From positions 1 to 59,046 of the IMG/VR virus record IMGVR_UViG_3300030329_000446: a stretch of DNA of 59,046 nt, one strand, 5' to 3'. The notes below the pieces were generated by a model. The model searched no databases, was not told the DNA's origin, and was given only the letters and a program-made list of their open reading frames with translations. Position 1 is the first letter of the stretch. Every line of letters starts with the position of its first letter. Below, one piece after another: positions 24,541 through 59,046 of this stretch. The DNA is from a virus (taxonomy: Duplodnaviria > Caudoviricetes). Both the position numbers and the translations under genes were made by a program.

Positions 24541-24938
24541 TTACAAGTCTTCATTAGCTTCTTCATTTCTTCTTTACCAATGACCTTCATAGCAGATTGA
24601 ATATCAGATACAATCTTATCTACATTAAGAATGTCATCGTCACTTGTCTTATTCCCACGTACTCGTGATAGAATTTCTAATGCCTTAATAGCACTGTTAG
24701 TATGTCCATGTCCTTTAGCATAGCTATACTGGTTTTCTAATTCTTCAATAACATTTACATCTGTAGTCATTTCCTGTTCTGCATCATAGATACGTTGTTG
24801 TATCTCTTCTTCTTGCAGTAACCTATGTCCCTGATTACGTGCAGAGCGTTCACTATAACCAGCTAATCGTGCAGCCTCAGATGCATTACGACTAAGAATA
24901 TAATGCTGTACAAAAGCCTCTTGTTTTTCATTTAGCAT
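24528..24938 (-). CDS. terS: Terminase small subunit
   Basis: LNEKQEAFVQHY...NASEAARLAGYSERSA...G.RLL HTH signature; SAIKALEIL. Confidence 0.85.
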   Translation of the reverse strand: MLNEKQEAFVQHYILSRNASEAARLAGYSERSARNQGHRLLQEEEIQQRIYDAEQEMTTDVNVIEELENQYSYAKGHGHTNSAIKALEILSRVRGNKTSDDDILNVDKIVSDIQSAMKVIGKEEMKKLMKTCKWEQ

Positions 24939-25317
24939 TTACAGTTAAGTCCATATCTGTTGGATCATAAGGGCCAGATGTAAAGACTATATCTTTAGGA
25001 TGGAAGCTCTCCCCACACCCACACATAGATTGGACATTAGGATTTTCTATAAATAATCTTTGTCCAAAAATATCTTTCTTGTAGTCTACTTCCATACCAG
25101 CAAGGTACATAACGGATGTACCATCTACTACAAGTTTACCTACATCCAGGTCTAATTCCAAGTCTGTTACTTTGGTTTGCAGTTTCTCCAATGGTTGCCA
25201 ATCATAATTGAAACCAGAGCAGCCTCCTCCCTTTACTGCTAAGAGGATACCTTCAAGGTTATTCTCAGCAATAATAGAGGAGAGGTGTATATCTGCTGCT
25301 TCAGTTATGTTTATCAT
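24928..25317 (-). CDS. iscA: A-type Fe-S carrier (IscA/HesB/ErpA family)
   Basis: INITEAA, VKGGGCSGFNY, NPN..SMCGCGESF; all three Cys present. Confidence 0.92.
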   Translation of the reverse strand: MINITEAADIHLSSIIAENNLEGILLAVKGGGCSGFNYDWQPLEKLQTKVTDLELDLDVGKLVVDGTSVMYLAGMEVDYKKDIFGQRLFIENPNVQSMCGCGESFHPKDIVFTSGPYDPTDMDLTVNAK

Positions 25318-25724: not shown

Positions 25725-25954
25725 TATATCTTAGCCTGTATTAGTTGATTAGGATCATCATCTTCTTGAGGATAGTGATCTTCTATGGTGCGTATCTTCT
25801 CGTCATTCTCTGCAATAATAGCTATTTGTTTATCTACTTCCTGAACAATATCAGAGTGTTCTCCTATTCCTACTGAATGATTAAGGTACACTTCTATATT
25901 AGCTTTCGCTATAGCTATCTCTCCTTGGTATTTAGATATTAAGGCATCTAACAT
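25724..25954 (-). CDS. Conserved small phage protein
   Basis: AKANIEVYL...VGIGEHSDI motif. Confidence 0.7.
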   Translation of the reverse strand: MLDALISKYQGEIAIAKANIEVYLNHSVGIGEHSDIVQEVDKQIAIIAENDEKIRTIEDHYPQEDDDPNQLIQAKI

Positions 25955-29470: not shown

Positions 29471-29929
29471 TTAAAACCTCCCTATAAATCTTGCGATATG
29501 ATTGACCCATGGCAGTAACATTAATGCCATTAATAGATTAGCTCCTGTATGAGCTATAGCTATTCTTAATGTGTCTCCTTTAGGAAACCCATCAGATACA
29601 AATAATCCTGCCAACCAGATAGTACCTGTAGTCCCTATATTAGCCCCTAGAACAGCAGCTATAGCACTAGGTAAGGGTAAGAACCCACTGGCTACTAAGG
29701 CTATGATAGCTGTAGTACTTAAAGAACTGGATTGCCATGCTAATGTACATACAATCCCACCTAAGAACATCCAGTATGGGTTAGTAATAAACCACTCTAG
29801 ATGTTCCACATTTCCTAAAGACTTCATACCTCCAGCAAACATTTTCAGACCAAAGTAAAATACAACCAGCCCTATACCTATCTGTACTATAGGCATATCC
29901 CAATATTTAATCATTAATGTTTTCTCCAT
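29471..29929 (-). CDS. Na+/Pi cotransporter family protein, single repeat
   Basis: FGLKMFAGGM, WQSSS, AIAAVLGANIGTT, RIAIAHTGAN. Confidence 0.85.
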   Translation of the reverse strand: MEKTLMIKYWDMPIVQIGIGLVVFYFGLKMFAGGMKSLGNVEHLEWFITNPYWMFLGGIVCTLAWQSSSLSTTAIIALVASGFLPLPSAIAAVLGANIGTTGTIWLAGLFVSDGFPKGDTLRIAIAHTGANLLMALMLLPWVNHIARFIGRF

Positions 29930-30086: not shown

Positions 30087-31781
30087 TTAGCCACACTCCT
30101 TCTGTCCAGTTGCAGGATCAATGAAGCAAGCTGCTCCCTCATCTTCTTTAGTAGCTGGTTCACTCTTATTAAGAATACCATACCTCTTACCAGCTAGTCT
30201 AAACGTAGTAACTCCTTTTAACTTTCCTTTCCAGCCCTGAAGATAAACATCTTTAAATTCTTCAAAGGTTACATTATCTCCTACATTAATAGTCTTGGAT
30301 ACAGCACTATCAATATAAGGTTGAATAGCTACCTGCATTTTCAGGTGCTCTTCCACTGACAGGTCTTCAGTTGTCTCTGCCTTTTCATTAAAATGAGCAT
30401 AGACATAATCCTGTAATTTAACTATCTGTGGTCCTTCCTCTGTGATAACAGTACGATCTACCTCATGCATAAAGACAGGCTCTATTCCACTACTAATATT
30501 ATCAGCCGTGAAACTAATCGTTCCTGTCGGAGCAATACTGGTTAAGTGGCTATTACGAATACCACACTTGGCTATCTTTTCTTGTAAGTCTGGTGGTAGT
30601 TTCTTTACATATCCACTCTGTAAGTACTGAGGATCATAGAGAGGAAACGATCCCTTCTCTTTAGCTAGGTCACAACTGGCTGAGATAGCTGTATAAGCTA
30701 AAGACCTACCTATCTTTCTAGTAAAGCGTACAGCCTCATCTGATCCATACCGTAGCCCTACCATAGTCAGACAGTTAGCTAGACCAGTAATACCTAACCC
30801 CATCCTCCTTTTATTCTTTGCTTCAGTCTCTTGATCTGGTAGTGGATAACGAGTACGGTCAATAACATTGTCCATTGCCTGTACCACTCTATGAATATCT
30901 TCTTCAAATAATTCAAAGTCAAAGACTCCACCTACAGTTTTCACATACTTAACTAAGTTAAAGCTACCTAGTAGACACGCTCCAAAGGGAGGTAGTGGTT
31001 GTTCCCCACAGGGATTGGTAGCTTCGATAGTCTCACAATACCAGAGAGGATTGTCTTGATTTATCCTATCAATAAATAAGACTCCAGGTTCAGCCCACTC
31101 CCAATTAGCTCTCATAATTTCATCCCATAAAGCTACAGCATTTATTTCTTTGTAGACTGTATCATTAAACTTTAATTGGAATGGGGTGTTACGTATAACA
31201 GCTTGCATAAACTCATCAGTAACACCTACTGATATATTAAAGTTAGTAAGTTTATCTTGGTTCTGTTTGGCCCTGATAAATTGTTCTATGTCTGGATGGT
31301 CTACACGTAAGACCCCCATCATCGCACCACGCCTATGACCAGCAGAGACTATCGTTCTACACACCGCATCAAATATGTGCATAAAAGATACAGGCCCACT
31401 AGCGGAACTATCAAGGCTAACAATCCTGTCACCATCAGGACGTATGCGAGAAAAGTCATACCCAATTCCCCCACCTCTCCGCATCGTTTCAGCAGCTTCA
31501 GTAGCCCTTGCCATAATGGATTCCATACTATCCTCAATGACTCCTGATACAAAGCAGTTATAGGCTGTAACATCCCTTGGACTCCCCATTGCTGACTGAA
31601 CTCTACCTGCTGGCATAAACCTTTGATTTAAAAAGATTTCTTTTATTTCTTGCCTATGATCTTCATCGTCTGACATAGCAGACGCATTACGATTAGCTGC
31701 TTCTTCAAAGCTCTCGTTTGGTAAACGATATTTAGTGGCGTGTAACTCCTCACATGCTGCAACTTGTGGACCGTATTCCAT
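30087..31781 (-). CDS. nrdJ: Class II (adenosylcobalamin-dependent) ribonucleotide reductase
   Basis: PAGR, NCFV, TNPCGEQPL, APTGTIS, C-terminal Cys pair; no beta subunit gene and no ATP cone seen. Confidence 0.88.
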   Translation of the reverse strand: MEYGPQVAACEELHATKYRLPNESFEEAANRNASAMSDDEDHRQEIKEIFLNQRFMPAGRVQSAMGSPRDVTAYNCFVSGVIEDSMESIMARATEAAETMRRGGGIGYDFSRIRPDGDRIVSLDSSASGPVSFMHIFDAVCRTIVSAGHRRGAMMGVLRVDHPDIEQFIRAKQNQDKLTNFNISVGVTDEFMQAVIRNTPFQLKFNDTVYKEINAVALWDEIMRANWEWAEPGVLFIDRINQDNPLWYCETIEATNPCGEQPLPPFGACLLGSFNLVKYVKTVGGVFDFELFEEDIHRVVQAMDNVIDRTRYPLPDQETEAKNKRRMGLGITGLANCLTMVGLRYGSDEAVRFTRKIGRSLAYTAISASCDLAKEKGSFPLYDPQYLQSGYVKKLPPDLQEKIAKCGIRNSHLTSIAPTGTISFTADNISSGIEPVFMHEVDRTVITEEGPQIVKLQDYVYAHFNEKAETTEDLSVEEHLKMQVAIQPYIDSAVSKTINVGDNVTFEEFKDVYLQGWKGKLKGVTTFRLAGKRYGILNKSEPATKEDEGAACFIDPATGQKECG

Positions 31782-32137: not shown

Positions 32138-32352
32138 GTTACCCCCACACTAGCAAAGAACCATGCCCTTGCTCTCTCTCTATTTTCAGTTATCGTATCA
32201 GTCTCAGTTTCAAACTTAGGTTTACTAGCATCAAGTAAAGCCTGTAACACAACAGCAATAAACAGGCATTGTTCTGGCCTGTCCCGTTGTAGTTTCTTTT
32301 CTATCGTGTATAGAAGATTTGTTCTTTTATTTTTTTTAGTAATAATCTTCAT
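31981..32352 (-). CDS. Conserved phage hypothetical protein
   Basis: LFIAVVLQALLDA...ARAWF...VCDHAGID. Confidence 0.7.
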   Translation of the reverse strand: MKIITKKNKRTNLLYTIEKKLQRDRPEQCLFIAVVLQALLDASKPKFETETDTITENRERARAWFFASVGVTCKDYITVCDHAGIDYSDTRVFAQQLIQSKHKRKVRQKINLILRKDLPIKIT

Positions 32353-32695
32353 AAAAATAATCTTCTAAGAATTGTTCTGCATCTAATACTACCAAGGGCT
32401 TCCTCCTGTTCATCTTAATAAAAAGAATAGGTGGTAAATCACTATGACTTTGTGCTTGATCTAACATATTATAGATACCAGTAAACTTTTCTTGGTTCTT
32501 ACACTCAATAGAGAAGGGGAACAGATGTTCGCAAGCACTACTGAGTTTAACATCTGCCCCATTCTCTCCCATGATAGCTGTAGTAATCTCTTTATCTAGC
32601 TCATGGGTATGATCTTCATCCAAATACTCTATGAGTTTACTCCTCACCCAATCTTGTAACTTACGTCCTTTAGCTTTGGCTGAAGATGTTTTCAT
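32336..32695 (-). CDS. Holliday junction resolvase-like PD-(D/E)XK nuclease
   Basis: SAKAKGRKLQ, GADV, SIECKNQE, PLVVLD. Confidence 0.8.
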   Translation of the reverse strand: MKTSSAKAKGRKLQDWVRSKLIEYLDEDHTHELDKEITTAIMGENGADVKLSSACEHLFPFSIECKNQEKFTGIYNMLDQAQSHSDLPPILFIKMNRRKPLVVLDAEQFLEDYFYEDYY

Positions 32696-36175: not shown

Positions 36176-36832
36176 TCAATCCCCTGTAGTTAAACATTCC
36201 CAAGAGGTAGGGAAGTGTTCCCTAGCTAATGACGATATATCATGGGCTATAAACCTAGTCTCAAGTTGAGTATCTTTTTTACATCGTAAGTTACATACCC
36301 TAGCAAAAGCAGCAAGACTACCACTCCAATACCATTCAGTATACATAGCTTGAGGTAGTACCATACGTGCCTGTTCAGGACAGATACCTTTGTTTAACAT
36401 ATTCTCATAACACTGAGTAACATATTCAATTAAAGGTTTCATATCATACTCAATAGAGGATAGTGGATCACTACCCTGCTTCTTATTCTCTGCTCTCCCT
36501 CTAAATAATTGAGGGTCAAAGAACTCTGGCTTGCTGTCCACATACCTACGTGATACCTCATTCCAGACTAATCCTACTTGATGTTTAGCTAATTGTCTAG
36601 CAATAAATATTGGAGCCTTGATATGGAACTGTAAGTAACAGTGACCAAAGGGAGTCCAATGATTATGTTTAGCTAGATACTTTATCAGGTTTTCATCTTC
36701 TATTTTTAAATAGTTTCCTACTACCCCGTCATCAGCAATAACATTCCATTCAGAAACTTTATCAAAGGATACACGGGCAGCATTAACCACAGTTAAATCA
36801 CTACCCATATGGTCAATCAGTTTTACTTCCAT
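36176..36832 (-). CDS. thyX: Flavin-dependent thymidylate synthase
   Basis: VNAARVSF, HWTPF, ARQLAKHQ...NEVSRRY, EQARMVLP. Confidence 0.95.
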   Translation of the reverse strand: MEVKLIDHMGSDLTVVNAARVSFDKVSEWNVIADDGVVGNYLKIEDENLIKYLAKHNHWTPFGHCYLQFHIKAPIFIARQLAKHQVGLVWNEVSRRYVDSKPEFFDPQLFRGRAENKKQGSDPLSSIEYDMKPLIEYVTQCYENMLNKGICPEQARMVLPQAMYTEWYWSGSLAAFARVCNLRCKKDTQLETRFIAHDISSLAREHFPTSWECLTTGD

Positions 36833-47039: not shown

Positions 47040-47327
47040 ATGGAAAATGATCCTTTAAGAAATATGGAGATACAACTAGGCTTAGAAGAAGGAGAACTAC
47101 AAAACTTTATTCAACTGGATTCTATCTCTTGTTGTAAAGTACTATCTTATATTATGAAAGATATTACTACAGGTCTTGCTGTTTCTCCTGCTGCTTTGAA
47201 GCGTACTCGTAGAGGAGAAGCTATTAGAGATTATGTTACCAGTATGGTAGGGATTATAGGTGAACTTAGAGAATTATTTGTAGAGGACCATGAACAGAAT
47301 GAATTTAGAAGAGAACATTTCAATTAA
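47040..47327 (+). CDS. Hypothetical protein upstream of TerL
   Basis: GGAGG RBS before MENDPL. Confidence 0.7.
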   Translation: MENDPLRNMEIQLGLEEGELQNFIQLDSISCCKVLSYIMKDITTGLAVSPAALKRTRRGEAIRDYVTSMVGIIGELRELFVEDHEQNEFRREHFN

Positions 47328-48855
47328 CTATGAACAGATAGAAAGTTTATTATCTTTAAGGGACTCCCTTAATACTTATAAACAATCTAAAGCTCATACT
47401 AACTTCCTGTCTTTTGTTAAGATGATGGCTCCTACTCTGGTATCTGACTGGGAGATGGGTAAACATATAGAAGTCATCTCTGATAAACTACAGGAGATAC
47501 AGGATGGTACACTCAAGAGGTTGATGGTCTTCCTACCACCACGTAGTTCCAAGTCTGTTATCTGTTCCAAGTTATTCCCTGCATGGTATATAGGACAAAA
47601 TCCTAACCATGAGATACTGACGGTATCCCACAGTGATCAGTTATCTTCTGACTTTGGTAGGTCAGTTAGGGATATAGTGAACAGTGAAGACTTTCAGAAT
47701 ATCTTTACGGGGGTACAATTAAGACAGGATGTACGGGCTGCTGGTAAGTGGCAGACTAATCAGAAGGGATCATACTATGCTGCTGGTGTACGGTCACAGA
47801 TAGCTGGTCGTGGTGCTCACATAGCTATACTGGATGATGTAATGTCTGAAGAGGATTCCTTCAGTGCGGCAGGTAGACGGTATGTTAAGGAGTGGTGGCC
47901 CTCTGGTCTACGTACTCGTATCATGCCTAATGGTTCCATTGTTATTATTAATACCAGATACCATCACGATGACCTGTGTGGTTGGTTACTAAAGCAGGAA
48001 CAGGAAATGCATGACTATGGTACAATACCCTGGGAGGTAATTAAGATACCTGCATGGGTAGACGAGGATACATCAGAACTCTTAGACCTGCCTGTAGGAT
48101 CATCTTACTTTCCTGAGTGGAAACCAGATGAACTTCTCAAGATAGATGAAGAAGAGATCAAGGCTACCAATGGTACAAAGTATTGGGAGTCACTGTATAT
48201 GCAGAACCCCACACCAGAAGAGGGAGGTCTTATTAAAAAGAAGTGGATTGAGTGGTGGCCCTACGATGAACCTCCAGGTTGTGACTTTATTATTCAGACA
48301 TACGATACAGCTTTCTCAACCAAGACTACGGCTGACTATAGTGTAATCCAGACCTGGGGTATCTTCTATGCACCTGAACAAACCCATGACGGTATGGAGA
48401 GTGCAGAGGCACAGCTTATACTCTTGGGTAATCTACGTGGGAGATATGAGTATCCTGAATTAAGACGGATGGCTCAGATGTCTTTTGATGAACATAGACC
48501 TGACGTATGTATCATAGAAAAGAAAGCTAGTGGTCAATCCTTGATACAGGATATGAGAAGGAGTGGTCTACCTGTACTGGAGTATATGCCTGACAGGGAT
48601 AAGGTATCCAGAGTATATGCTGCTACTCCATCAATGGAAGCTGGTCGTGTATGGTTTCCTAAAGGAAGAAAGTGGGCAGAAGAACTTGTAGATGAATTAA
48701 TTACCTTCCCTAATGGAGCACACGATGACCAAGTGGATGCTATGACAATGGCTATTCACTACATGAAAGAGTCATGGAATCTGCTACATCCAGATGATCC
48801 TGACTGGGAAGATGCTCCACCTACGAAAAAAAGAGTTGCATACTGGAACTTTTAA
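47290..48855 (+). CDS. terL: Terminase large subunit
   Basis: LPPRSSKS (Walker A variant), GRGAHIAILDD, TRYHHDDL, YDTAFS, IEKKASG, HDDQVDAMT. Confidence 0.95.
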   Translation: MNRMNLEENISINYEQIESLLSLRDSLNTYKQSKAHTNFLSFVKMMAPTLVSDWEMGKHIEVISDKLQEIQDGTLKRLMVFLPPRSSKSVICSKLFPAWYIGQNPNHEILTVSHSDQLSSDFGRSVRDIVNSEDFQNIFTGVQLRQDVRAAGKWQTNQKGSYYAAGVRSQIAGRGAHIAILDDVMSEEDSFSAAGRRYVKEWWPSGLRTRIMPNGSIVIINTRYHHDDLCGWLLKQEQEMHDYGTIPWEVIKIPAWVDEDTSELLDLPVGSSYFPEWKPDELLKIDEEEIKATNGTKYWESLYMQNPTPEEGGLIKKKWIEWWPYDEPPGCDFIIQTYDTAFSTKTTADYSVIQTWGIFYAPEQTHDGMESAEAQLILLGNLRGRYEYPELRRMAQMSFDEHRPDVCIIEKKASGQSLIQDMRRSGLPVLEYMPDRDKVSRVYAATPSMEAGRVWFPKGRKWAEELVDELITFPNGAHDDQVDAMTMAIHYMKESWNLLHPDDPDWEDAPPTKKRVAYWNF

Positions 48856-48890: not shown

Positions 48891-49964
48891 ATGGCAGGTT
48901 TATCTACAGTATTAAAGATGGTAAATATGGCTATAGAGGCTGGAGGAAAAGCAGCACCTAAAGTTATGTCTGTAGATAATAAAGGACTTAAAAATTTATT
49001 ACAGTCTGATGATAAAATAGAGGAGTTTCAAAAAGTATGGAAGTCTTCCCCTGAAAATAAATTTGATCAAAGACAGATACAAGACGTGGATGTTAGAGAA
49101 GCTGTAGAACAATTTGACAAGGGTGAACTTACAGGAAAGAAATTAAGAAATATTATTAAAGAAAAGTTACCGATGGAAATGATAAATAGTGTTCAAAAAA
49201 TTCCTAGCTTTTCAGATATGATTGGAGCCTTAAATAAAAGTCAAGTTAAGGCTGGTATTGTAGGATTAAATAAAAGTCTAAAGGGACAACGAGTAGCAAC
49301 AAGATTAGATATACCAGCATATAATCGCCATGATAAATGGATTGTAAGTATACATGATGGTATGAAGGGTAAAGCTATTGGTTATGGAAAAACTGCAAGA
49401 CTTAAAAATGTAGAGTTTGGAAGTCAACCTAGAATAGCAATGGATATTGCACAAGAAAAATTAAAGCCAGATTCTAAAAAAATGAAACAAGCGAAAGAAG
49501 AATTTTTTCTTACAAATAAAAGAAAACCTAATACAGATGAAATTAAACAAATGAGAGCCGACCCATCTAATATGAGTAAGACAGATAAATCTACTATTGC
49601 AAGAATGGAAGGAGACTGGACAGAAACTCCTGATAGTGATACCATCTCTTTTGCAGAAAATTTATTTAAACGACAGAAGGATGGAAAGTTTTTTGATGAA
49701 GCAGGTGAAGAATGGATACAGGTAGGAATGAACCCGTATAGAGGAAGTAATTTTTATGATAAAGCTACAGGCCAAGCCCTACAAGTAGCCGATGAAGTAA
49801 TACAAGTTGGTCCTCTTGTATTTGCAAAAGGAGCACGTAAACCTACTTTATCTGAGTATAAGAAGAATTTTACATTTAAAGATACCCAAGGAAAAACAAA
49901 AGTATTTAATAGGGGTGGTATAGTAGCACGTAATCCCTACCCTGAAGCGAGAGGAATATATTAA
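48891..49964 (+). CDS. Globular protein of unknown function with a C-terminal FNRGGIV tag
   Basis: RLDIPAY...WIVSIH...GMNPYRGSNFYDK...VIQVGPLV; lies between TerL and portal. Confidence 0.75.
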   Translation: MAGLSTVLKMVNMAIEAGGKAAPKVMSVDNKGLKNLLQSDDKIEEFQKVWKSSPENKFDQRQIQDVDVREAVEQFDKGELTGKKLRNIIKEKLPMEMINSVQKIPSFSDMIGALNKSQVKAGIVGLNKSLKGQRVATRLDIPAYNRHDKWIVSIHDGMKGKAIGYGKTARLKNVEFGSQPRIAMDIAQEKLKPDSKKMKQAKEEFFLTNKRKPNTDEIKQMRADPSNMSKTDKSTIARMEGDWTETPDSDTISFAENLFKRQKDGKFFDEAGEEWIQVGMNPYRGSNFYDKATGQALQVADEVIQVGPLVFAKGARKPTLSEYKKNFTFKDTQGKTKVFNRGGIVARNPYPEARGIY

Positions 49965-52498
49965 TGGCTGTTGAGAAAAATCCTTATGATGTGTTAAAGT
50001 CTAATGTTATTCCTATGGATATAGGAATAGAGGAAGAGTCTGCTGCATCTATTGAAGTAGATGATGATGGAGGAGTAATTGTAGACTTTGGTATGGAAGA
50101 GGAAATAACGGAAGAAGATGCGATTGGTTTAGGAGAATGGTATGACGATCTCTGTGGAGAGATTGATGAAGATGAATTAAGCGATATTGCCAATCAAGTT
50201 TATAATAATTATCAGAGTGACAAGGACTCTCGTGGTGAGTGGGAGGATATGTTTGAACGTGGCTTTGATCTTCTTGGCCTTAAACTTCAGGATGCAACAG
50301 AACCATTTGAGGGAGCCTGTACGGCTGTTCACCCTCTACTTATTGAGTCTGCCGTAAAATTTCAATCAAAAGCCTCGCAGGAATTATTCCCTGCTGGAGG
50401 TCCAGTCAAGACACAGATTATAGGAAAGCAAACTCCTGACAAGGAGATGCAAGCTAATCGTGTTAAAGACTTTATGAATTATCAATTAACAGAGCAGATG
50501 TCTGAATACTTCGATGAGTTTGAACGGATGTTGTTCCATCTGCCACTTATAGGATCAGCTTTCAAAAAGATATATTATGATGCAAATCTTAAACGCCCTG
50601 TTTCAGAGTTTGTGCCTATTGACCAGTTTTACGTGTCTTATTTCGCTAGTGATTTGCGTAGGGCTGATAGGTATACTCATGTCATCTACCGTAGTCCTAA
50701 TGATCTTAAAAGGGATATCGCTGCTGGAGTCTATGTTGATATAGAATTACCCCAAGCAGGTACTCCTGAACAGAGTGCTATGGAAGAAAAAATGAATACT
50801 ATTCTAGGGTTTTCACCATCCAGTGATAATGACCCTCAGTATGTATTACTTGAACAACATTGTTATCTAGATTTACCTGCTCCATTTAATGATCCAGATG
50901 GTGTGGCTCTTCCCTATATCGTAACCATAGAAGAAAAGTCTAAGCAGGTTTTAAGTATTCGTAGAAACTACAACCAAGACGATCCCAATAAACAGAAAAA
51001 GTTACACTTTACACATTATAGATTCGTTCCAGGGTTCGGTTTCTATGGATTTGGCCTAATGCATTTCTTAGGTAATCTCACGATGACTGCTACAGCAGCT
51101 ATGAGAGCCTTGGTTGATGCAGGTCAATTTGCGAACTTACCAGGAGGTTTTAAAGCAAAGGGTGTACGGGTAGTTGGTGACAATGATCCTATTGCTCCTG
51201 GTGAATTTAAGGAAGTGGAGTCAACTGGTATGGACCTCTCAAAGGCTATTGTTCCCTTGCCATACAAGGAGCCTTCCTCAACTCTCTACCAGATGCTCCA
51301 GTTTGTATCAGCAGCAGGACAGAAGTTTGCCGATAGTTCTGAACAGATCATTTCGGATAACTCCTCCTATGGTCCTGTTGGAACGACAATGGCTCTACTT
51401 GAAGCATCAAGTAAGTTCTTTAGTGCAGTCCACAAGAGACTCCACAAATCTCAGAAAGATGAGTTTAGATTGTTAGCTACGATTGATTATGAGTATCTAC
51501 CCTCTAAATATCCATATGAGATTCCTAGTGCTAATCAGCACGTATTTAGGAGAGACTTTGATGGTCGAGTAGATGTTCTTCCTGTCAGTGATCCAAACAT
51601 TCCTTCAAATGCACACAGGATGATGATGGCTCAAATGGCACTTCAACTTGCTCAGAACTCGCCTCCTGGTATGTTCAACTTAGAAGCACTTAACAGAACA
51701 ATTCTTAATTCTGCTAATATGCCTAATATTGAGGAGATACTCCCACCTAAACAACAACCACAGAAACTTGATCCTGTATCTGATATTATGGCTGCAACTA
51801 AGGGATTACCTATTGCAGCATTTCCAGGGCAGGATCACGATGCTCATATACAGGTAAAGATGGCTTATCTTCAAGACCCTATGAATGGAGCAAATCCAAT
51901 TATGGAACGTATTGCTCCTGTAATACAGGCTAATATACAGGAACATTCTGTAATGAAGTATCAGGAACAGATGAGTGGTATGACTCAACAATTAGCACAG
52001 GGAGCGCAAGACCCTGCTGTTATTGAACAGGCTATGGCTCAAGCTGCTCAACAGGTTATGCAAGCTAATCAAATGGCTGCACAGGGTATGGGACAGTCGA
52101 TTGAACAACAGACTATACAACTTCAACAGGGTCAGCTTATGTTAGAGAAAGAAAAACTTACGGCTGATACTATGAAAGATAGTGCAGAAATGGCTCTCAA
52201 GAATAGAGAACTAAATCTCAAGGAAGACCAACTTAAAGTTCAGGCTTATAAAGATGGAGCTTCAGCTATTATGAAGGCAGAAGAAAAAGAGAAGGATCGT
52301 GTTGCTAAAGAAAGTATGCAAGCAGTAGAATTAATGTCTAAGATGGCTGAACAGGAAATGATAGATGATACTAAGCGTGACCTGAAGTTAGCTGATATAA
52401 AAGCTGACATGGCTAAAGAAGAAGACCGTACTGCTCGTGATATGGAATTATCTAATATTCAAACCCATAGAGATGAAAGACTAGAAGGAGAGGAGTAA
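49964..52498 (+). CDS. Portal protein
   Basis: PFEGAC.AVHPLLIESAVKFQ, FMNYQL, LPLIGSAFKK.YYD, PGFGFYGFG, PVGTTMALLE; Gln-rich C-terminal barrel. Confidence 0.9.
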   Translation: MAVEKNPYDVLKSNVIPMDIGIEEESAASIEVDDDGGVIVDFGMEEEITEEDAIGLGEWYDDLCGEIDEDELSDIANQVYNNYQSDKDSRGEWEDMFERGFDLLGLKLQDATEPFEGACTAVHPLLIESAVKFQSKASQELFPAGGPVKTQIIGKQTPDKEMQANRVKDFMNYQLTEQMSEYFDEFERMLFHLPLIGSAFKKIYYDANLKRPVSEFVPIDQFYVSYFASDLRRADRYTHVIYRSPNDLKRDIAAGVYVDIELPQAGTPEQSAMEEKMNTILGFSPSSDNDPQYVLLEQHCYLDLPAPFNDPDGVALPYIVTIEEKSKQVLSIRRNYNQDDPNKQKKLHFTHYRFVPGFGFYGFGLMHFLGNLTMTATAAMRALVDAGQFANLPGGFKAKGVRVVGDNDPIAPGEFKEVESTGMDLSKAIVPLPYKEPSSTLYQMLQFVSAAGQKFADSSEQIISDNSSYGPVGTTMALLEASSKFFSAVHKRLHKSQKDEFRLLATIDYEYLPSKYPYEIPSANQHVFRRDFDGRVDVLPVSDPNIPSNAHRMMMAQMALQLAQNSPPGMFNLEALNRTILNSANMPNIEEILPPKQQPQKLDPVSDIMAATKGLPIAAFPGQDHDAHIQVKMAYLQDPMNGANPIMERIAPVIQANIQEHSVMKYQEQMSGMTQQLAQGAQDPAVIEQAMAQAAQQVMQANQMAAQGMGQSIEQQTIQLQQGQLMLEKEKLTADTMKDSAEMALKNRELNLKEDQLKVQAYKDGASAIMKAEEKEKDRVAKESMQAVELMSKMAEQEMIDDTKRDLKLADIKADMAKEEDRTARDMELSNIQTHRDERLEGEE

Positions 52499-53025: not shown

Positions 53026-53445
53026 ATGAGACACGTTGACTTATCTAATGCTATCAAGAACGATGAATGGATTGATGCAGTAGATGGAGAAGTAACTGTG
53101 GATGAGCTTCCCGAAATTCCTGGGTATCATGTATTGGTACGCCCTTTCTCAGTAAAGGAGAAAACTAAGAGTGGTATATTTATTCCAGATTCCATTAAAG
53201 ATGATATTGCCTATCTTACAACAGTAGGACAGGTTATCGTAGTTGGAGACTTAGCTTATGAAGATGTAAATAAGTTTCCTAAAGGTCCGTGGTGTGCAGA
53301 AGGTGATTTTGTCTGTTATGGTAAACATACAGGGACTAAACTCTTTTATCAGGGACAAAGATTTATACTATTATTTGATGACCAGATTATTATGAAGGTA
53401 AAGTCTCCTAGTCATTTAGACCCTACTTTTAATTTAAGTCATTAA
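53026..53445 (+). CDS. groES: GroES-like co-chaperonin
   Basis: GYHVLVRP..VKEKTKSGIFIP...GQVIVVG..AY...GPWC.EGDFV.YGKH.G...LLFDDQI. Confidence 0.85.
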   Translation: MRHVDLSNAIKNDEWIDAVDGEVTVDELPEIPGYHVLVRPFSVKEKTKSGIFIPDSIKDDIAYLTTVGQVIVVGDLAYEDVNKFPKGPWCAEGDFVCYGKHTGTKLFYQGQRFILLFDDQIIMKVKSPSHLDPTFNLSH

Positions 53446-53480: not shown

Positions 53481-53529
53481 ATTATTATTGGACGTAAATA
53501 CGTTTGAGTCGTCAACAACGGAGAATATT

Positions 53530-54528
53530 ATGGCAGAAGAAAGAGAAATTGAAGTAGAAGAACAGGATGATGGTGGATGGAATCAGATTACTATCCCTGA
53601 ACATGAGGAATTACAAGTAGAAGTAGAGGAAGAAGTTCAGGCTGTTCAAGAAGAAAAAGAAACACCAGAACCTAATCCTCCTCCTTTAAAACCTGATGAA
53701 CCTGAATTAGATGGAATTCAAACTCAGGGAGCAGAAAAAAGAATTCGTAAATTAATTCGTCAACGTAAAGAACGTGATGAAGAAATTGAAAAGTTAATGA
53801 GGCATAATAGTGAGCTTCAGTCTAAACTAAGTAATAAAGAAACAGAAGTTGCTACAAATGTTAAACAGAATATTGAACTAAGTTCCAAACAGGTTGATGA
53901 TAAAATTGAATTAGCTAGGACTGCATATCTTAATGCCTTTGATGGTGGAGATAAGGAACAGCTTCTTTCGGCACAGGAAATTTTAAATCAGGCTCAGTTT
54001 GAAAAACAACGGATTGAAGATGCTAGGACTGCTCTTGATCAATATGAGACAGCACAAGAGAACCAACAGACGGTTCAGGAGCAGCAACAAGAATTTAAAC
54101 CTGATCCTAAAGCTATGAGGTGGGCATCTGAAAATGACTGGTTTGGTCAGGATCAGATAATGACTTACGGAGCTTTAGAGATTGATAAACAATTAAAAGA
54201 AGAGGGATATGATCCCTCAGAAGATGAGTTCTATGTAGAAGTGAATAGGAGACTTCAGGAGACTTTTCCTAATAAATTTACAGGAGAACCTGAAGTACAG
54301 AATTCACAACCCCGTCAGCAGGAAACGTCACCTGCTCAAGTGGTCGCTGGTACATCACGCTCACCTAGCACTGCCAGTAACCGTAAGGTTAAGCTAAGTC
54401 CAGAAGACATTCGACTGGCTAATAAATGGCAGATACCACTTGAAGTATATGCGGCAGAGAAGCTAAAAGTTGATAAAGCTGAAGGCGAATATACTAATGT
54501 TGTAACTAATAAGCGTGGAGGACAATAA
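53530..54528 (+). CDS. Capsid scaffolding protein
   Basis: Acidic coiled coil; EKRIRKL, PDPKA..WA..N.WFG, VKLS...LA...I.LE.YA; start MAEERE with GGAG RBS. Confidence 0.75.
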   Translation: MAEEREIEVEEQDDGGWNQITIPEHEELQVEVEEEVQAVQEEKETPEPNPPPLKPDEPELDGIQTQGAEKRIRKLIRQRKERDEEIEKLMRHNSELQSKLSNKETEVATNVKQNIELSSKQVDDKIELARTAYLNAFDGGDKEQLLSAQEILNQAQFEKQRIEDARTALDQYETAQENQQTVQEQQQEFKPDPKAMRWASENDWFGQDQIMTYGALEIDKQLKEEGYDPSEDEFYVEVNRRLQETFPNKFTGEPEVQNSQPRQQETSPAQVVAGTSRSPSTASNRKVKLSPEDIRLANKWQIPLEVYAAEKLKVDKAEGEYTNVVTNKRGGQ

Positions 54529-54530
54529 TT

Positions 54531-55019
54531 ATGGCACGGACAGAATCACGTAGTTCACAAGAAAGGGAAAGTCAAACCAGAGAAGAAGTATATACATTTG
54601 AGGAGGAAGATGCTTTAGCAATACCTGAAGAGGTAAAGGAAAGATTTCTAAATCAAGGTATGGTTCTTCGTTGGATACGAATTCAGATCAGAGGCAATGA
54701 CGATTATCAAAATGTCGGAAAGCGTCAACGAGATGGATGGGTGTTCGTAGCACCAGATGAAGTACCCGAATTGTCAACAAGCTCCATCGTGAAGGAGAAT
54801 GGTCGCTATGCAGGTACAGTGGTTAGAGGGGATGTAGCTCTAGCAAAAATGCCTGAAGGTCGTGCAATAGCGAGAAGAGAGCATTATGAGAATAAGGCTA
54901 ACGAATTAATGAACGCTGTAAATAGCCAATTAATGAGTAATAGTGATTCTCGTATGCCCATTTATAATAATAGTAAGTCAACCGTGACTAGGGGAAAAAG
55001 TCCTAAATTTCAAGACTGA
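54531..55019 (+). CDS. Conserved head-module protein
   Basis: LRWIR...DD..NV....DGW.FV...E.PE...GDVALAKMP. Confidence 0.7.
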   Translation: MARTESRSSQERESQTREEVYTFEEEDALAIPEEVKERFLNQGMVLRWIRIQIRGNDDYQNVGKRQRDGWVFVAPDEVPELSTSSIVKENGRYAGTVVRGDVALAKMPEGRAIARREHYENKANELMNAVNSQLMSNSDSRMPIYNNSKSTVTRGKSPKFQD

Positions 55020-55663: not shown

Positions 55664-56602
55664 ATGGCTATTTCAAGAGCTAGTATCGCCAAAGAACTTC
55701 TCCCTGGTCTTAATGCCGTATTCGGTCTTGAGTACGGGGAAGTCAACAACGAACATGAGGCACTCTTTGAAGTCGAGAATTCTGATCGTGCTTTTGAAGA
55801 GGAAGTAATGTTCACTGGCTTTGCAACTGCACCTGTAAAAGGGGAAGGTTCAGCAGTCAGTTATGATACGGCACAAGAAACGTATGTTTCTCGTTACACC
55901 AATGAAACGATTGCCCTCGCATTTGCAATCACAGAAGAAGCTATGGAAGATAATCTTTATGATACGTTCTCCAAACTTCGTGCTCGTGGTCTTGCTCGTG
56001 CAATGGCAAACACCAAGCAAGTGAAGGCTGCTGACGTTTTCAATAACGGCTTCAGTACTGCTGCTGCTTACATTGGTGGTGATGGAGCAGCTTTCTTCAG
56101 TGCCGCCCACCCAACCGTATCAGACGGTGTACAGTCTAACCTAGCTGCCGCTTCCGACCTTTCTGAAGCTGCACTAGAAACTGTTATCACGAGTATCCAG
56201 AAGATCAAAGATGATCGGGGTATTCTTATCGGTGCTAATGCGGTATCATTGCATATCCCACCTGATCTATGGTCAACTGCTGATCAGATTCTCCACTCGC
56301 CAGGAACTACGGTTGCTGGTGGAAGTGGTGATGGAACCTATGCTCAGAACAACATCAATGCTGTTCGTCACATGGGTATGATTCCAGAAGGCTTCATGGT
56401 GAATCGCAGGTTTACGGATACCAATGCGTACTTCATTAAAACTGATGTACCGAATGGTGCTAAAATGTTTGTACGTGTTCCGCTACAAACTAAGATGGAA
56501 CCTGACTTCGACACAGGTAATCTTCGCTTTAAGGCTCGTGAGCGTTATAGCTTCGGGTTCTCTGACTGGCGTAGTTACTTTGGGTCGGCTGGCTCCAGCT
56601 AA
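55664..56602 (+). CDS. Major capsid protein
   Basis: KELLPGLNAVFGLEY, SDRAFEEEV, ALAFAITEEA.EDNLY, DFDTGNLRFKARERYSFG.SDWR; strong RBS; downstream terminator. Confidence 0.92.
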   Translation: MAISRASIAKELLPGLNAVFGLEYGEVNNEHEALFEVENSDRAFEEEVMFTGFATAPVKGEGSAVSYDTAQETYVSRYTNETIALAFAITEEAMEDNLYDTFSKLRARGLARAMANTKQVKAADVFNNGFSTAAAYIGGDGAAFFSAAHPTVSDGVQSNLAAASDLSEAALETVITSIQKIKDDRGILIGANAVSLHIPPDLWSTADQILHSPGTTVAGGSGDGTYAQNNINAVRHMGMIPEGFMVNRRFTDTNAYFIKTDVPNGAKMFVRVPLQTKMEPDFDTGNLRFKARERYSFGFSDWRSYFGSAGSS

Positions 56603-56993: not shown

Positions 56994-57653
56994 ATGCCTG
57001 ATTATGATTATTTAATCACGGATGTAAAAAATACGGCAGAAAATGATGGGACAGAATTTGCAGCACAATTACCCAAGATTGTAAATAAAGCAGAAAATAA
57101 ACTTACGACTGATCTAGACGATCATGGCTTAACCGTATATACATCTATAGCGATTACATCAGGAAAGGCTGTTGTTACAATTCCTAGTGGTACTCGTATC
57201 GTTAGGAATTTTTCCATGACTCAAAACGGGTCACGGAAGAATATGCTATTGCGTACAATGGAATTTGTTAATGACTTCTGGCCTGTTAGTGCCAGTACCA
57301 GTGCTCCAATCTATTATGCTTATAGAGGTAATACAGAGATAAGAGTTGCTCCCACTCCAGCATCTACCCATAACGGTGAGATTATGACAGTGGTTAGACC
57401 AACCACTCTTACCTCTACAGGTACAACTTCAAATTACTTTACGGATTTTTGTTACGATGCTTTATTTACTGCCTGTATGGTAGAAGCATCTTTATTTATG
57501 AAAGACTCTACAGCTTCTCAATTATGGGAGAGTCAATATCAATATCATATTAATGCACTACGTAATCAGGCACGTAGAACGAGACAGGATGATATGGCTG
57601 TTAATGCCAGCCCTGCTGGTGGACCTGATACTCTTATTAAAGGTTCAAGTTAA
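56994..57653 (+). CDS. Head-tail adaptor-like protein (second copy)
   Basis: KAENKL, P.YYA...IRVAPTP, DALF.AC..EA..FMK. Confidence 0.7.
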   Translation: MPDYDYLITDVKNTAENDGTEFAAQLPKIVNKAENKLTTDLDDHGLTVYTSIAITSGKAVVTIPSGTRIVRNFSMTQNGSRKNMLLRTMEFVNDFWPVSASTSAPIYYAYRGNTEIRVAPTPASTHNGEIMTVVRPTTLTSTGTTSNYFTDFCYDALFTACMVEASLFMKDSTASQLWESQYQYHINALRNQARRTRQDDMAVNASPAGGPDTLIKGSS

Positions 57654-57889
57654 TGTCTATTAGTAGAGCTAATATAGGAAAGGAAATTAAAATGGCCCCA
57701 TCAAAAAAGAAACTTAATATTAAGAAAGCGATTAAAAAACCTGGAGCTTTACGGGCAGCGTTAGGAGTTAAAAAAGGTCAAAAGATTCCTGCTTCTAAAT
57801 TAAATGCTGCTGCTAAACAAAAAGGTAAGATGGGACAAAGAGCGAGGTTTGCTAAAACACTTAGAAAGTTAAATCGGAGGAAAGCATAA
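57653..57889 (+). CDS. Small very basic protein with an MCP-like N-terminus
   Basis: MSISRANIGKEI...IKKPGALRAALGV..G.KIP..KL..AAK..G..G.RARFAKTL. Confidence 0.75.
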   Translation: MSISRANIGKEIKMAPSKKKLNIKKAIKKPGALRAALGVKKGQKIPASKLNAAAKQKGKMGQRARFAKTLRKLNRRKA

Positions 57890-58080
57890 TGGCTACTAAG
57901 GAAGCATTATATAAAGATTCTAAAATACCTGTGGCTAAACCAACAGGACAGGGATTTGGGGCTGCTAAGAAGGGTCCAGCCGTTCACGGCCCTATTCATG
58001 CAATCTGTGATTATGACTATCCACAGGGTAAAAGTTTCCCCATAGATCATAACACTACTTATACAAGAGAGGGGAATTAA
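57889..58080 (+). CDS. Small hypothetical protein
   Basis: KPTGQGFGAAKKG; coupled ORF. Confidence 0.65.
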   Translation: MATKEALYKDSKIPVAKPTGQGFGAAKKGPAVHGPIHAICDYDYPQGKSFPIDHNTTYTREGN

Positions 58081-58081
58081 A

Positions 58082-58402
58082 ATGGCTAAAATGTCACATA
58101 TAGGTTTATATCCTGCTGAAGAAGCTCGTTCTGGTACGATGTCTGAAATGGAACGTGCCAAACATATGAAGAAGGGTGGTCAGGTTAAAAAGAAAAAGAA
58201 AAAACAGGGCTACAAAGATCGTAAGGATGAGTCTATTGCAATGCGTGTAAAGAAGAAGCGCACTAAGAAGCAGTTAAAGGCTAGTCGTGATGAGTCCTAC
58301 GGTAAGTGGGGTAGCGCAGCTAAGAAGCGTGGTAAGATTAATCGTTCCTCCAGTAAGGGATGGGATGGTAATCGTGAAGTCTCACGCCACTATGATTCGT
58401 AA
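58082..58402 (+). CDS. Small very basic protein with MKKGGQV
   Basis: KQGYKDRKDESIAMR...SRDESYG. Confidence 0.7.
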   Translation: MAKMSHIGLYPAEEARSGTMSEMERAKHMKKGGQVKKKKKKQGYKDRKDESIAMRVKKKRTKKQLKASRDESYGKWGSAAKKRGKINRSSSKGWDGNREVSRHYDS

Positions 58403-58413
58403 GGAGAAGAAAG

Positions 58414-59046
58414 ATGGCTATGAGTAAAGCAGAATCACGTAAATTAGTTTCAGAAGCATTAAGAGAGTTTGAAGAAAAAGGTGGAAAAATAGAAAAGGTT
58501 AGACCAGGAAGAGCAAAAGGTTTAAAACCTCAAGTAACTGAGCCAGGACGTAGAGGATCACCAGGAGTACGAGTAAGTTTACGGGGTGGAAATGTAATTA
58601 GTATTGATGGTCCTCCATTAACTGATACAGAAAAAAAACAACGAAAAAATAAAACTAAAACTCCTACTCCTAAACCTCCGACTACTACTACTAAACCTAC
58701 GAATACATCAAAGAAAACTAAAATTACTGGTCACTCTAAGACTCCAGGTAGATTTGTTGATAGAAAAACAGGTAAAGATGTTACTCAACCAATACCAAAG
58801 AAAGGTAGTAGTACTATACGTAAAGAAGCAAATAAAAATAAACCAAAATCTCGTGTAAAACCTATTAAAAAAATTCCAAGTAAAACACAAGGTTTATCCT
58901 ATATAATACAACAATTAACTAAAAAATTAAAAAGTTTGGATACAAAGTCTACTCCTAAGACTACTCCTAAAGATGGTGGTTTTAAATCTACTAAGGTTAA
59001 TGGTACAAAAACACCAATAAAAAAAGCTACACTTAATAAACAACCA
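58414..59046 (+). CDS. 5' part of the basic protein that continues across the junction to 963
   Basis: AAGGAG RBS, ATG at 58414, open to the window end, in frame with 1-963. Confidence 0.8.
   Translation, partial: MAMSKAESRKLVSEALREFEEKGGKIEKVRPGRAKGLKPQVTEPGRRGSPGVRVSLRGGNVISIDGPPLTDTEKKQRKNKTKTPTPKPPTTTTKPTNTSKKTKITGHSKTPGRFVDRKTGKDVTQPIPKKGSSTIRKEANKNKPKSRVKPIKKIPSKTQGLSYIIQQLTKKLKSLDTKSTPKTTPKDGGFKSTKVNGTKTPIKKATLNKQP
58894..59046 (+). repeat. Terminal direct repeat, right copy
   Basis: 153 bp matching 1-165 with one 12-bp unit fewer. Confidence 0.95.

Follow-up and report, generated by a model that had tools for sequence, protein, structure and literature searches.

Cargo-loading peptides of encapsulins bind directly to the shell protein; most are located at the C-terminus, and they are not known to copy a terminus of the shell protein itself. 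In phage T4, the prohead protease gp21 of the phage reportedly cleaves off the capsid targeting sequence (CTS) of the internal proteins. The internal proteins IPI–III are described as diverse, mostly basic and non-essential cargo with a common short N-terminal CTS, which directs them into the prohead core (PMC3012670). For the phage P1 protein DarB, the N-terminal 30 residues are reported to suffice for packaging (PMC9024508). Besides these N-terminal capsid-targeting signals, a common N-terminus of capsid and scaffold is already known. According to the study of the S. aureus phage 80alpha, the capsid protein (CP) and the scaffold share a motif of 13–14 residues with the host ribosomal protein L27, which is cut by Prp; the motif is also found on non-homologous proteins of other phages (PMC5744158). 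In the P22 procapsid, the α-helical N-arm of the coat protein is described as being held by the C-terminal helix-loop-helix of the scaffold (PMC9965877).

Here we analyze a marine phage locus in which a small basic protein begins like the major capsid protein (MCP). The window, i.e. the whole stretch of DNA that was analyzed, comprises positions 1 to 59,046 of the IMG/VR virus record IMGVR_UViG_3300030329_000446 (Caudoviricetes). Our tentative explanation, to which we give slightly less than even confidence, is that the first 13–14 residues of the small protein constitute a portable head-incorporation tag, which mimics the N-terminal helix of the MCP, probably has the scaffold as its binding partner and serves to load basic cargo that binds DNA. 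The following features of the window are relevant:

2806–3480, plus strand: second SU10-adaptor-like gene (PF24175, 2.9e-9), at the far end of the variable basic-protein cassette
53530–54528, plus strand: candidate scaffolding protein, acidic and Q/E-rich, between the GroES and MCP genes (phrog_28737, function unknown)
54385–54468, plus strand: scaffold candidate, C-terminal segment with the strongest conservation, in 68 distinct homologues including distant ones
55664–56602, plus strand: MCP, HK97 fold (PF25209, 4.7e-12; PF10124, 1.1e-8; phrog_371)
55664–55699, plus strand: N-terminal 12 residues of the MCP, the original of the arm, near-invariant in 80 MCPs
56994–57653, plus strand: SU10-type adaptor (PF24175, 1.5e-20)
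57653–57691, plus strand: arm, codons 1–13 of the small open reading frame (ORF), like MCP residues 1–12, with a predicted helix at 5–13
57677–57694, plus strand: SD-like GGAAAGGAA and in-frame ATG (codon 14), a possible second start
57695–57889, plus strand: basic linker and helical body including the stop codon, of an unnamed, widespread small-protein family
57889–58080, plus strand: conserved neighbor of 63 aa, no family
58082–58402, plus strand: basic protein of 106 aa in the same cassette, no family

The small ORF (57653–57889, plus strand) encodes 78 aa and begins with MSISRANIGKEI; the MCP ORF (55664–56602, plus strand) encodes 312 aa and begins with MAISRASIAKEL. The likeness of the two N-termini, pointed out in a preliminary description of this DNA, is real, and the first 11 residues include eight identities (M, I, S, R, A, I, K, E). 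The K/R-rich body mentioned there is equally evident: residues 16–78 contain 23 K+R but lack D and E altogether. In their DNA the two starts agree at 26 of 36 bases (counted by eye), and Ser4 is encoded by TCA in the MCP gene and by AGT in the small ORF. As these codons are unrelated, the likeness lies at the protein level and a nucleotide repeat is excluded. Over positions 2–12 the match is 7/11, with a runner-up of 4/11 among the 1,222 starts in the window that open an ORF of 30 aa or more. Only 7 of 2,000 shuffled MCP 11-mers gave 7 or more matches anywhere in the window. A scoring matrix built from relatives assigns 35.2 bits to the start at 57653 and 21.6 bits to that at 55664, followed by a third start at 1.8 bits.

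By matrix score, an arm of about 14 residues recurs on many small basic proteins of related marine podovirus contigs and is not a one-off. The 14-position matrix was derived from 27 arms and applied to these contigs with a threshold of at least 10 bits. It yielded 120 matches among 25,651 plus-strand starts, 80 of which belong to MCPs and 40 to small polybasic ORFs of 27–156 aa. No match was found among 16,747 minus-strand starts, and the highest score in a wider null set of 19,611 minus-strand starts was 6.0 bits. Together with the start and shuffle tests in the window, these nulls rule out chance as the origin of the likeness. A search of 1.84 billion cluster representatives gave 98 matches; about half were giant, K-rich low-complexity proteins matching at the polybasic positions only and were ignored, and the arm is present in 47 of 48 further small proteins. 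Of the 30 relatives whose interval between the two adaptor genes is complete, 9 have no arm gene, indicating that its function is dispensable.

The arm gene always lies within the structural (head-tail) block. It is located directly 3′ of the adaptor homologue in 16 of 38 loci, and a homologue of the 63-aa protein is the next recognized gene on its 3′ side, also in 16/38. In 8/38 it lies no more than 41 nt upstream of the second adaptor-like homologue. The adaptor stop overlaps the arm ATG in the window (TAATG), which suggests translational coupling. In the ESM Atlas, the head-module proteins of 197 aa and 162 aa fall into unnamed viral clusters only, the former with a weak lead to cement proteins (0.84).

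Judged from codon use, the arm is under selection at the protein level, since its residues are constant while the codons vary. Arg5 is invariant in 35 of 35 distinct arm genes despite the use of five Arg codons, and Ser is encoded by both the AGY and the TCN family. Q/E11 is likewise invariant in all 35, so that the ISR..I..E segment, whose loss from orthologues would have spoken against the preliminary description, is retained at both residues. The conservation spans the whole 12–14 residues with a helix-like spacing (I3, R5, I8, Q/E11, I/L12). The codon evidence also led us to reject a DNA-level repeat or regulatory element.

Of the 35 arm genes, 33 have either an SD-like site or a preceding stop within 10 nt of the arm ATG. 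Four relatives (L072, L037, P0024 and P0026) possess the arm and have no second Met, so the arm must be translated there; initiation solely at an internal Met is contradicted by these genes. An annotation artefact, i.e. an upstream in-frame extension, was rejected because L072 and L037 have arm-only starts and because arm genes have SD sites of their own. The possible second start noted earlier in the window is indeed present, with an ATG at 57692–57694 and GGAAAGGAA at 57677–57685 before it. A Met at position 13 or 14 occurs in 12/35 arm genes, in 9 of these with an SD-like site upstream, and armless homologues of the tail start near the same point (L005:3998, L016, L012). The codon-14 ATG is likely to be a relic of the original start of the tail gene, and it is possible that the small protein is made both with and without the arm.

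The surviving, apparently ancestral start and the overlap of the arm ATG with the adaptor stop in 16/38 loci would be compatible with a functionless protein. The arm would then be a relic of recombination with the start of the MCP gene, or a 5′ cassette for efficient or coupled initiation, and the peptide itself would be neutral. We find this scarcely credible: the residues are constant where the codons vary, the DNA of arm and MCP differs where the proteins agree, and the arm is retained in genes with their own SD sites at other positions. It also persists where the MCPs have diverged to about 53% identity, in gp50 of the cultured pelagiphage HTVC023P.

The 36 distinct arm proteins comprise at least four unrelated kinds of tail. 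The K+R fraction of the tails ranges from 0.26 to 0.92 (median 0.435), and 16 of the 36 proteins are no longer than 45 aa. As far as the tail comparisons indicate, the arm is exchanged among unrelated tails. The distribution of the tail classes on the MCP tree requires 24 changes, and the MCP clade of the window, with six members, includes three tail kinds. In L005, whose MCP is 94.6% identical to that of the window, the arm is located on a different protein of 118 aa, and a member of the window-type tail family follows without an arm.

The tail found in the window is a widespread helical 'KKPGALR' domain: 61 sequences share the invariant motif columns, and 3,184 protein clusters contain homologues at E ≤ 1e-3, none of them with a Pfam domain. 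The AF2 model of the 78-aa protein contains helices at 23–27, 29–37, 47–54 and 58–77 (pLDDT 84–92), and a helix is predicted for residues 5–13 of the arm (pLDDT ~66). The protein has no Pfam match even at E ≤ 10 and no PHROG; Foldseek against the PDB returned no match with E ≤ 0.001, and VIA reached a Z of 3.5 at best. Of the earlier proposal of a tag for DNA-binding cargo, the tag part stands, as the arm is a translated, conserved and portable module on strongly basic tails; DNA binding is plausible.

The MCP matches PF25209 and PF10124, both past the family cut-offs. Its model is of moderate quality (pLDDT 67.8), and the fold search with Foldseek retrieved encapsulin, GTA and SU10 capsids (E ~1e-4, prob 0.97–1.0) as well as T5 and HK97. 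A sequence search of the PDB with the MCP gave chance-level rows only. Among the 80 MCPs, A2, I3, R5, I8 and K10 are present in at least 90%, and L12 is invariant. The modeled N-terminus begins with a helix at residues 5–20, predicted with low confidence. In the models, a helix starts at residue 5 of the arm as well as of the MCP, at low confidence in each case (pLDDT about 56–66).

From its composition, position and conservation, we infer that the ORF at 53530–54528 encodes the scaffolding protein. It contains 72 D+E versus 43 K+R, with 33 versus 17 in the first 120 residues, and its position between the GroES and MCP genes is kept in all relatives. As expected of a P22-like scaffold, the gene lies 5′ of the MCP gene and its product has an acidic, helix-prone composition. 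The listed start of this ORF is a TTG at 53488, and its first ATG is at 53530. The window resembles P22 in the pairing of an acidic scaffold candidate, conserved at its C-terminus, with an MCP whose N-terminus is predicted to be helical. By analogy with the helix-loop-helix of P22 gp8, we propose the segment encoded at 54385–54468 as the docking site of both the MCP N-terminal helix and the arm. A PDB sequence search with the profile of the scaffold C-terminus gave chance-level rows only. In contrast to this likeness in layout, no sequence relation to gp8 or gp5 was found, and the P22 account cited above describes no natural mimic of the N-arm.

Among the sequences compared, the motif is translated, selected at the protein level, confined to MCPs and small basic proteins and placed in the head-tail gene block. 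As a tag, it presumably binds a partner, which would be whatever recognizes the MCP N-terminal helix during procapsid assembly. Following the P22 analogy, this partner would be the acidic scaffold, most likely with its conserved C-terminal domain. The polybasic tail, either a bare K/R run or a small basic domain, would be brought into the procapsid via the tag. When DNA is packaged and the scaffold exits, the basic cargo would remain on the DNA, where it could screen charge or anchor the DNA locally. The arm protein would accordingly be present in the virion and its tail would bind DNA. By our estimate, the expected copy number would be enough to neutralize just a minor fraction of the charge on the DNA, and a tag that competes with the MCP for the scaffold could damage assembly.

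A different partner would be the MCP shell itself. As suggested in the preliminary description, the arm could dock in a vacant MCP N-arm site, for example at the portal vertex, and tether a few DNA-binding copies to the inner shell. In mature P22 the N-arm is described as reaching the neighboring subunit, so N-arm-binding sites do exist (PMC9965877), and the MCP of the window has the HK97 fold. The arm gene also adjoins the portal-adaptor genes. Co-variation of the arm with the MCP N-terminus, put forward as a check in the preliminary description, appears as a slight excess over shuffled pairings but is weak. The mean identity of an arm to its own MCP is 5.15 versus 4.80 for shuffled pairings, a value reached in 2 of 5,000 shuffles, and without the clade of the window it is 4.82 versus 4.62 (192 of 5,000), both uncorrected for relatedness. 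Rare residues at position 7 are matched between the arm and its own MCP (D/D in L155, N/N in L143 and L085). The copy, however, stops at residue 12 and excludes the subsequent LPGLN..FG stretch, which all MCPs share, and the docked N-arm of mature P22 is an extended loop, the helix being the scaffold-bound procapsid form. Overall, docking at a vacant site appears quite improbable. Since the N-arm helix of the P22 procapsid docks to the scaffold, the scaffold is at least as likely a partner of the arm as an MCP site.

The T4 CTS resembles the arm in being a short, conserved N-terminal peptide on otherwise unrelated proteins. Descriptions of the CTS do not present it as copied from the MCP, whereas the arm copies the MCP N-terminus. 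In addition, many of the arm cargoes are only 27–45 aa long, and the Pfam scan of the 59 ORFs of the window found no prohead protease family, although remote homologues are possible; the sole protease is an M15 cell-wall peptidase.

The absence of a recognized protease family also speaks against a shared cleavable propeptide. One protease, of the host or an unrecognized phage enzyme, would trim the MCP and the small basic proteins, and the tag may prevent the basic peptide from acting before it has entered the head. Such a propeptide has a precedent in 80alpha, where the motif on CP, scaffold and L27 is cut by host Prp and where, as here, the capsid protein and another phage protein have a common N-terminal motif. 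In both proteins of the window the arm ends in a small residue, any residue and E/Q, followed by a hydrophobic residue. This presumably resembles the protease sites of giant phages, and T4 targeting sequences are also said to be cleaved. The 80alpha motif ends in an F|A cleavage site, whereas Phe-Ala is absent from the arm and from the first 15 residues of the MCP, and the second carrier in 80alpha is the scaffold rather than a polybasic microprotein. To our knowledge, Prp and L27 of this type occur in other bacterial groups only. While the 80alpha motif imitates a ribosomal protein of the host, the arm had no cellular counterpart when a degenerate DNA pattern of the motif was run against 185,579 species genomes: the five matches are three MCPs and two arm-bearing small basic proteins, and the pattern is narrow, which makes the absence of a cellular match weak evidence. 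The five matched contigs were binned in MAGs of unrelated phyla, apparently as binning noise. Conservation over 12–14 residues furthermore exceeds what a cleavage site usually needs, and we consider a propeptide unlikely.

The arm might also act on assembly without entering the virion. It would compete with the MCP N-terminus for the scaffold, timing or promoting scaffold release or limiting aberrant assembly, with its basic tail paired with an acidic part of the scaffold; retention in the virion would not be needed. The strongly acidic scaffold candidate, the strongly basic tails and the absence of the arm gene from 9/30 relatives are consistent with such a modulator, for which we know of no precedent. 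The tails are very diverse, though, and include folded domains that are widespread without the arm. As this diversity fits a cargo better than a dedicated regulator, we regard a modulator as highly improbable.

The tag reading finds further parallels in P1 DarB, where an N-terminal segment is a signal for capsid cargo, as proposed for the arm, and in the encapsulin peptides, which are likewise short and terminal and fasten cargo to the inner face of an HK97-fold shell; docking of the arm is proposed by comparison. Encapsulin 7s2t, with a bound targeting peptide, is among the best fold matches of the MCP model. DarB differs from the arm proteins in being a single anti-restriction cargo of 250 kDa, and its published account reports no likeness to the MCP N-terminus. 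Our literature searches found no tag that copies the MCP N-terminal helix on minimal polybasic peptides.

The carriers of the arm belong to the HTVC023P-type group. Our searches of the literature on this group found no proteomics and no mention of scaffold, protease, basic or internal proteins. According to one abstract, this group is widespread and ranks with the most abundant of the pelagiphages (PMC9599517). In HTVC023P, gp50 (46 aa) has the architecture of an arm and a basic tail; within the genome of this phage it is the top match of the matrix scan at 18.4 bits, followed by the phage's own MCP at 10.7 bits. The cultured phage makes the idea directly testable.

A bolder version, possible but on the doubtful side, is that the microproteins of HTVC023P-type phages, down to 27 aa and composed of an MCP-helix mimic and a poly-Lys/Arg tail, are 'phage protamines'. 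They would be loaded by the dozens or hundreds via the assembly interface of the capsid, be it scaffold or shell, and would condense or anchor the genome. The tag would then be a swappable cargo-loading module for protease-less HK97 capsids that has repeatedly been moved onto new basic cargo. If the tag reading is true, it would represent a route for loading internal proteins in scaffold-dependent phages without a prohead protease, would indicate protein counter-ions for packaged DNA, and would provide a 14-residue handle for cargo in HK97-type shells.

The 78-residue protein encoded at 57653-57889 (+) begins like the major capsid protein (MCP; 55664-56602, +), and the preliminary description had counted 8 identical residues among the first 11. 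This likeness is borne out. Among 1,222 start codons in the window, the small ORF matches the MCP 11-mer at 7/11 positions, while the next-best start reaches 4/11; only 7 of 2,000 shuffled MCP 11-mers scored at least 7 anywhere in the window. A chance match is unlikely within the window alone. Although 26 of 36 bases also match (counted by eye), the likeness lies at the protein level, since the two genes use different codons for Ser4, TCA and AGT. The proposed second start is present as well, at an ATG at 57692 with GGAAAGGAA upstream.

Among podoviruses, the window phage is a relative of the HTVC023P-type pelagiphages; its MCP, of HK97 fold, shares 53-55% identity with the MCPs of HTVC023P, HTVC027P and phage DSL-LC04. 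The 59,046-bp record is classed as a complete viral genome (CheckV 100%). Its ends overlap, with 58894-59046 matching 1-165 (92.7% over 55 aa, with a difference of one TTPK repeat unit), and a single long T/K-rich basic ORF therefore spans both ends (58414-59046, continuing into 1-963). The record appears to represent a complete, circularly permuted genome, though it is linear according to the source. Auxiliary genes on the minus strand (24928-25317, 29471-29929, 30087-31781, 36176-36832 and 25948-28233) encode, in this order, an Fe-S cluster biosynthesis protein, a Na/Pi cotransporter domain of fragment size, ribonucleotide reductase, ThyX and a methyltransferase/MptE-like protein of 761 aa. 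The small ORF follows the head gene block.

Head gene block and adjoining cassette of the window.
47290-48855: terminase
49964-52498: portal
53026-53445: GroES
53488/53530-54528 (+): acidic protein, 332-346 aa, between the GroES and 162-aa protein genes
54531-55019: 162-aa protein, after the acidic protein
between the 162-aa protein and MCP genes: 197-aa protein
55664-56602 (+): MCP
between the MCP and SU10-type adaptor genes: 108-aa protein
56994-57653: SU10-type adaptor, end of the head block, before the small basic ORFs
57653-57889 (+): first of a run of small basic ORFs downstream of the adaptor
2806-3480: second adaptor-like gene, closing the small-basic-ORF cassette

The two SU10-adaptor-like paralogues (56994-57653 and 2806-3480) flank a cassette whose small basic genes vary greatly, and the interval between them measures 751-5,412 bp in 30 relatives.

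We surveyed the MCP-like N-terminus (the arm, about 13-14 residues) in 80 loci, each surrounding an MCP of 65-96% identity. Comparison of each start codon with the MCP N-terminus of the same locus (at least 6/12 identities) gave 32 matches from 98 loci with 23,189 starts; shuffled arms gave 9. A 14-position matrix built from 27 of these arms (cut-off at least 10 bits) found 120 matches among 25,651 coding-strand starts and none among 16,747 on the opposite strand. Read by eye, the 120 comprise 80 MCP starts and 40 that open small basic ORFs (27-156 aa), with no other kind of start among them. Across 19,611 opposite-strand starts, taken as a wider null, the maximum was 6.0 bits. Two independent searches agree with the matrix survey. 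A degenerate DNA pattern scanned against one genome per prokaryote species (185,579) gave five matches: three are MCPs, and the other two are small basic proteins that add to those with the arm. When 1.84 billion cluster representatives were searched with a profile, 48 small proteins were recovered, of which 47 have the arm. The remaining profile matches, giant low-complexity K-rich proteins that fitted the profile in its basic part only, were set aside. Motif-bearing contigs (L186-L190) were binned in MAGs labelled Chlamydiia, Anaerolineales, Crocinitomicaceae, Thermodesulfobacteriota and uncultured bacterium. Because the matches are phage head genes, these bins probably contain viral contigs, and host assignment from the labels was rejected.

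The arm consensus, M-x-I-[SG]-R-[SA]-[SN]-[IV]-x-x-[QE]-[IVL]-x-[KR]-[PA], parallels that of the MCP N-terminus, M-A-I-[NS]-R-[AS]-S-I-[AS]-K-[EQ]-L-L-P-G. Serine codons of the AGY and TCN families alike occur in the 35 distinct arm genes.

Arm positions kept among 35 distinct arm genes.
I3: 34/35
R5: 35/35, through AGA, AGG, CGT, CGC and CGA
S/A6: 30/35
S/N7: 31/35
I/V8: 33/35
Q/E11: 35/35
I/V/L12: 34/35

An SD-like site or the stop of an upstream ORF lies within 10 nt of the arm ATG in 33 of the 35. Twelve have a Met at codon 13 or 14, nine of them with an SD-like site upstream, and armless homologues begin at this same point. We read the internal Met as the original start of the tail gene, which would have been retained when the arm was fused in front.

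The body of the window's protein (residues ~23-77; 57719-57886) belongs to a very large unnamed family, encoded by 569 of the 600 IMG/VR pattern matches listed and matched by 3,184 protein clusters (90% identity; 42-137 aa) in a 5.8-billion-protein set. No Pfam domain was found in these clusters, nor a PHROG or PDB fold match for the helical body. Most members have different N-termini; HTVC027P gp44, for example, starts with another module. The body pairs with many N-terminal modules, and some longer proteins end in it (e.g. in loci L008 and L040). Among 80 loci kept from the IMG/VR pattern search, the arm precedes this body in four (L004, L007, L072 and L037). L072 and L037 lack the second Met, and the arm must therefore be translated there. 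The arm or a close variant starts all 42 closest database relatives examined, in 18 of which the protein as called has one residue fewer after the Met. The most informative relative is L005, with an MCP 94.6% identical to that of the window: the gene directly 3' of its adaptor encodes a different, 118-aa basic protein starting with the same arm, and an armless homologue of the window's protein comes next.

Apart from basic composition, the tails of 36 distinct arm proteins have no alignable sequence in common. They include pure K/R runs, the helical domain of the window's protein, a different small domain marked by the motif G-[ST]-G-x-R-F, and several further kinds; the K+R fraction is 0.26-0.92 (median 0.435), and 16 of the 36 proteins have at most 45 aa, the shortest 27. 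Mapped onto a quick MCP tree, the classes of tail require 24 changes (possible minimum 4), and three different tails occur within the window's own well-supported six-member clade. In this run L084 was labelled armless only since its identical contig-mate L005 represented it. Certain short C-terminal motifs (such as ..FVASFYD or ..RHYD, ..YMGGSLN.., ..NRLY, ..ARRP) are found repeatedly among basic cassette proteins that are otherwise unrelated, both armed and armless (L005:3630-3986, L147:9683-10150, L133:3323, window 58082-58402), and may represent a second interaction handle.

With a cut-off of 20 bits, 38 arm genes were counted, and every one of them belongs to the structural block: 16 come directly 3' of the adaptor gene, 8 precede the second adaptor-like gene by at most 41 nt, and most others fall between the two, with two beside the portal gene. 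Exactly one arm gene is present in 21 of 30 loci with the whole adaptor-to-adaptor interval. It is absent from the other nine, low thresholds included, and is therefore common but dispensable.

Five complete records of cultured phages were scanned with the matrix. The top match in HTVC023P is gp50 (18.4 bits; its MCP, 10.7), an annotated hypothetical protein of 46 aa (32318-32458) with arm and basic tail. HTVC027P and DSL-LC04 have no small arm protein of this kind. Their best starts, compared with the null maximum of 6.0 bits, belong to the 339-aa HTVC027P gp82 (L184:13165-14184; 7.4 bits) and a 380-aa DSL-LC04 ORF (L167, minus strand, start 15322; 8.6 bits), which have a C-terminal 60-residue motif in common (53% identity, E=6e-12). 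This is a weak hint that the two could be larger cargo with the same tag. Pag-Yong1 and CRP-902 gave no convincing arm match.

AlphaFold2 predicts a helix at arm residues 5-13 (pLDDT ~66), a flexible linker and a confident helical body; the MCP N-terminal helix likewise starts at residue 5 (pLDDT ~56-62). In the P22 procapsid, as described in PMC9965877, the coat N-arm is an α-helix held by the C-terminal helix-loop-helix of the scaffold, and on maturation it becomes an extended loop reaching into the neighbouring subunit. By analogy with this procapsid, a copy of the MCP N-terminal helix would most simply be a scaffold-binding handle. The product of 53530-54528 is a candidate scaffolding protein: it is acidic (72 D+E versus 43 K+R), Q/E-rich and encoded upstream of the MCP gene, and its C-terminal ~30 residues are conserved even in distant relatives. 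In the window its gene is separate from that of the 162-aa protein, whose ATG lies 2 nt after the stop. In 9 of 68 distinct relatives (L092, L104, L088, L090, L125, L134, L120, L126 and L117) the two are fused in one open frame of 474-499 aa, which suggests that they work together.

We tentatively favour a head-incorporation tag for basic cargo, probably acting via the scaffold. In the preliminary description, the arm instead occupies an N-arm site of the shell lattice where MCP neighbours are missing, for example at the portal vertex. We regard this as unlikely, as the copy is limited to the helical first 12 residues and lacks the conserved MCP stretch beyond. Co-variation of the arm with its own MCP, also raised there, is weak: mean identity is 5.15 versus 4.80 shuffled (2/5,000 as high) and, outside the window's clade, 4.82 versus 4.62 (192/5,000), kinship being uncorrected in both comparisons. 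At position 7, a few rare residues match between arm and own MCP.

The closest precedent for a capsid protein N-terminus common to another phage protein is 80alpha. According to PMC5744158, its CP, scaffold and host L27 have a common motif cut by host Prp, which also occurs on non-homologous proteins of other phages. A cleavable propeptide common to the MCP and the small basic proteins is thus kept alive even without a phage protease; no prohead protease family was found in 59 window ORFs scanned against Pfam. We nevertheless consider it somewhat unlikely. The 185,579-genome scan, with its narrow pattern, found no cellular protein with this N-terminus. An assembly modulator is an improbable reading, and a functionless relic a very improbable one. 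Among known capsid-targeting tags, the N-terminal signal of P1 DarB (PMC9024508) works in a way comparable to the tag favoured here. On that reading the arm would be a variant of such tags. In the literature searched we found no description of an MCP N-terminus mimic on small basic phage proteins, and a term search in the main text of papers on the HTVC023P-type group found no mention.

The original observation therefore extends beyond the window: in a clade of marine podoviruses that are abundant, the arm is an N-terminal module, both conserved and portable, which was found only on MCPs and small polybasic proteins.
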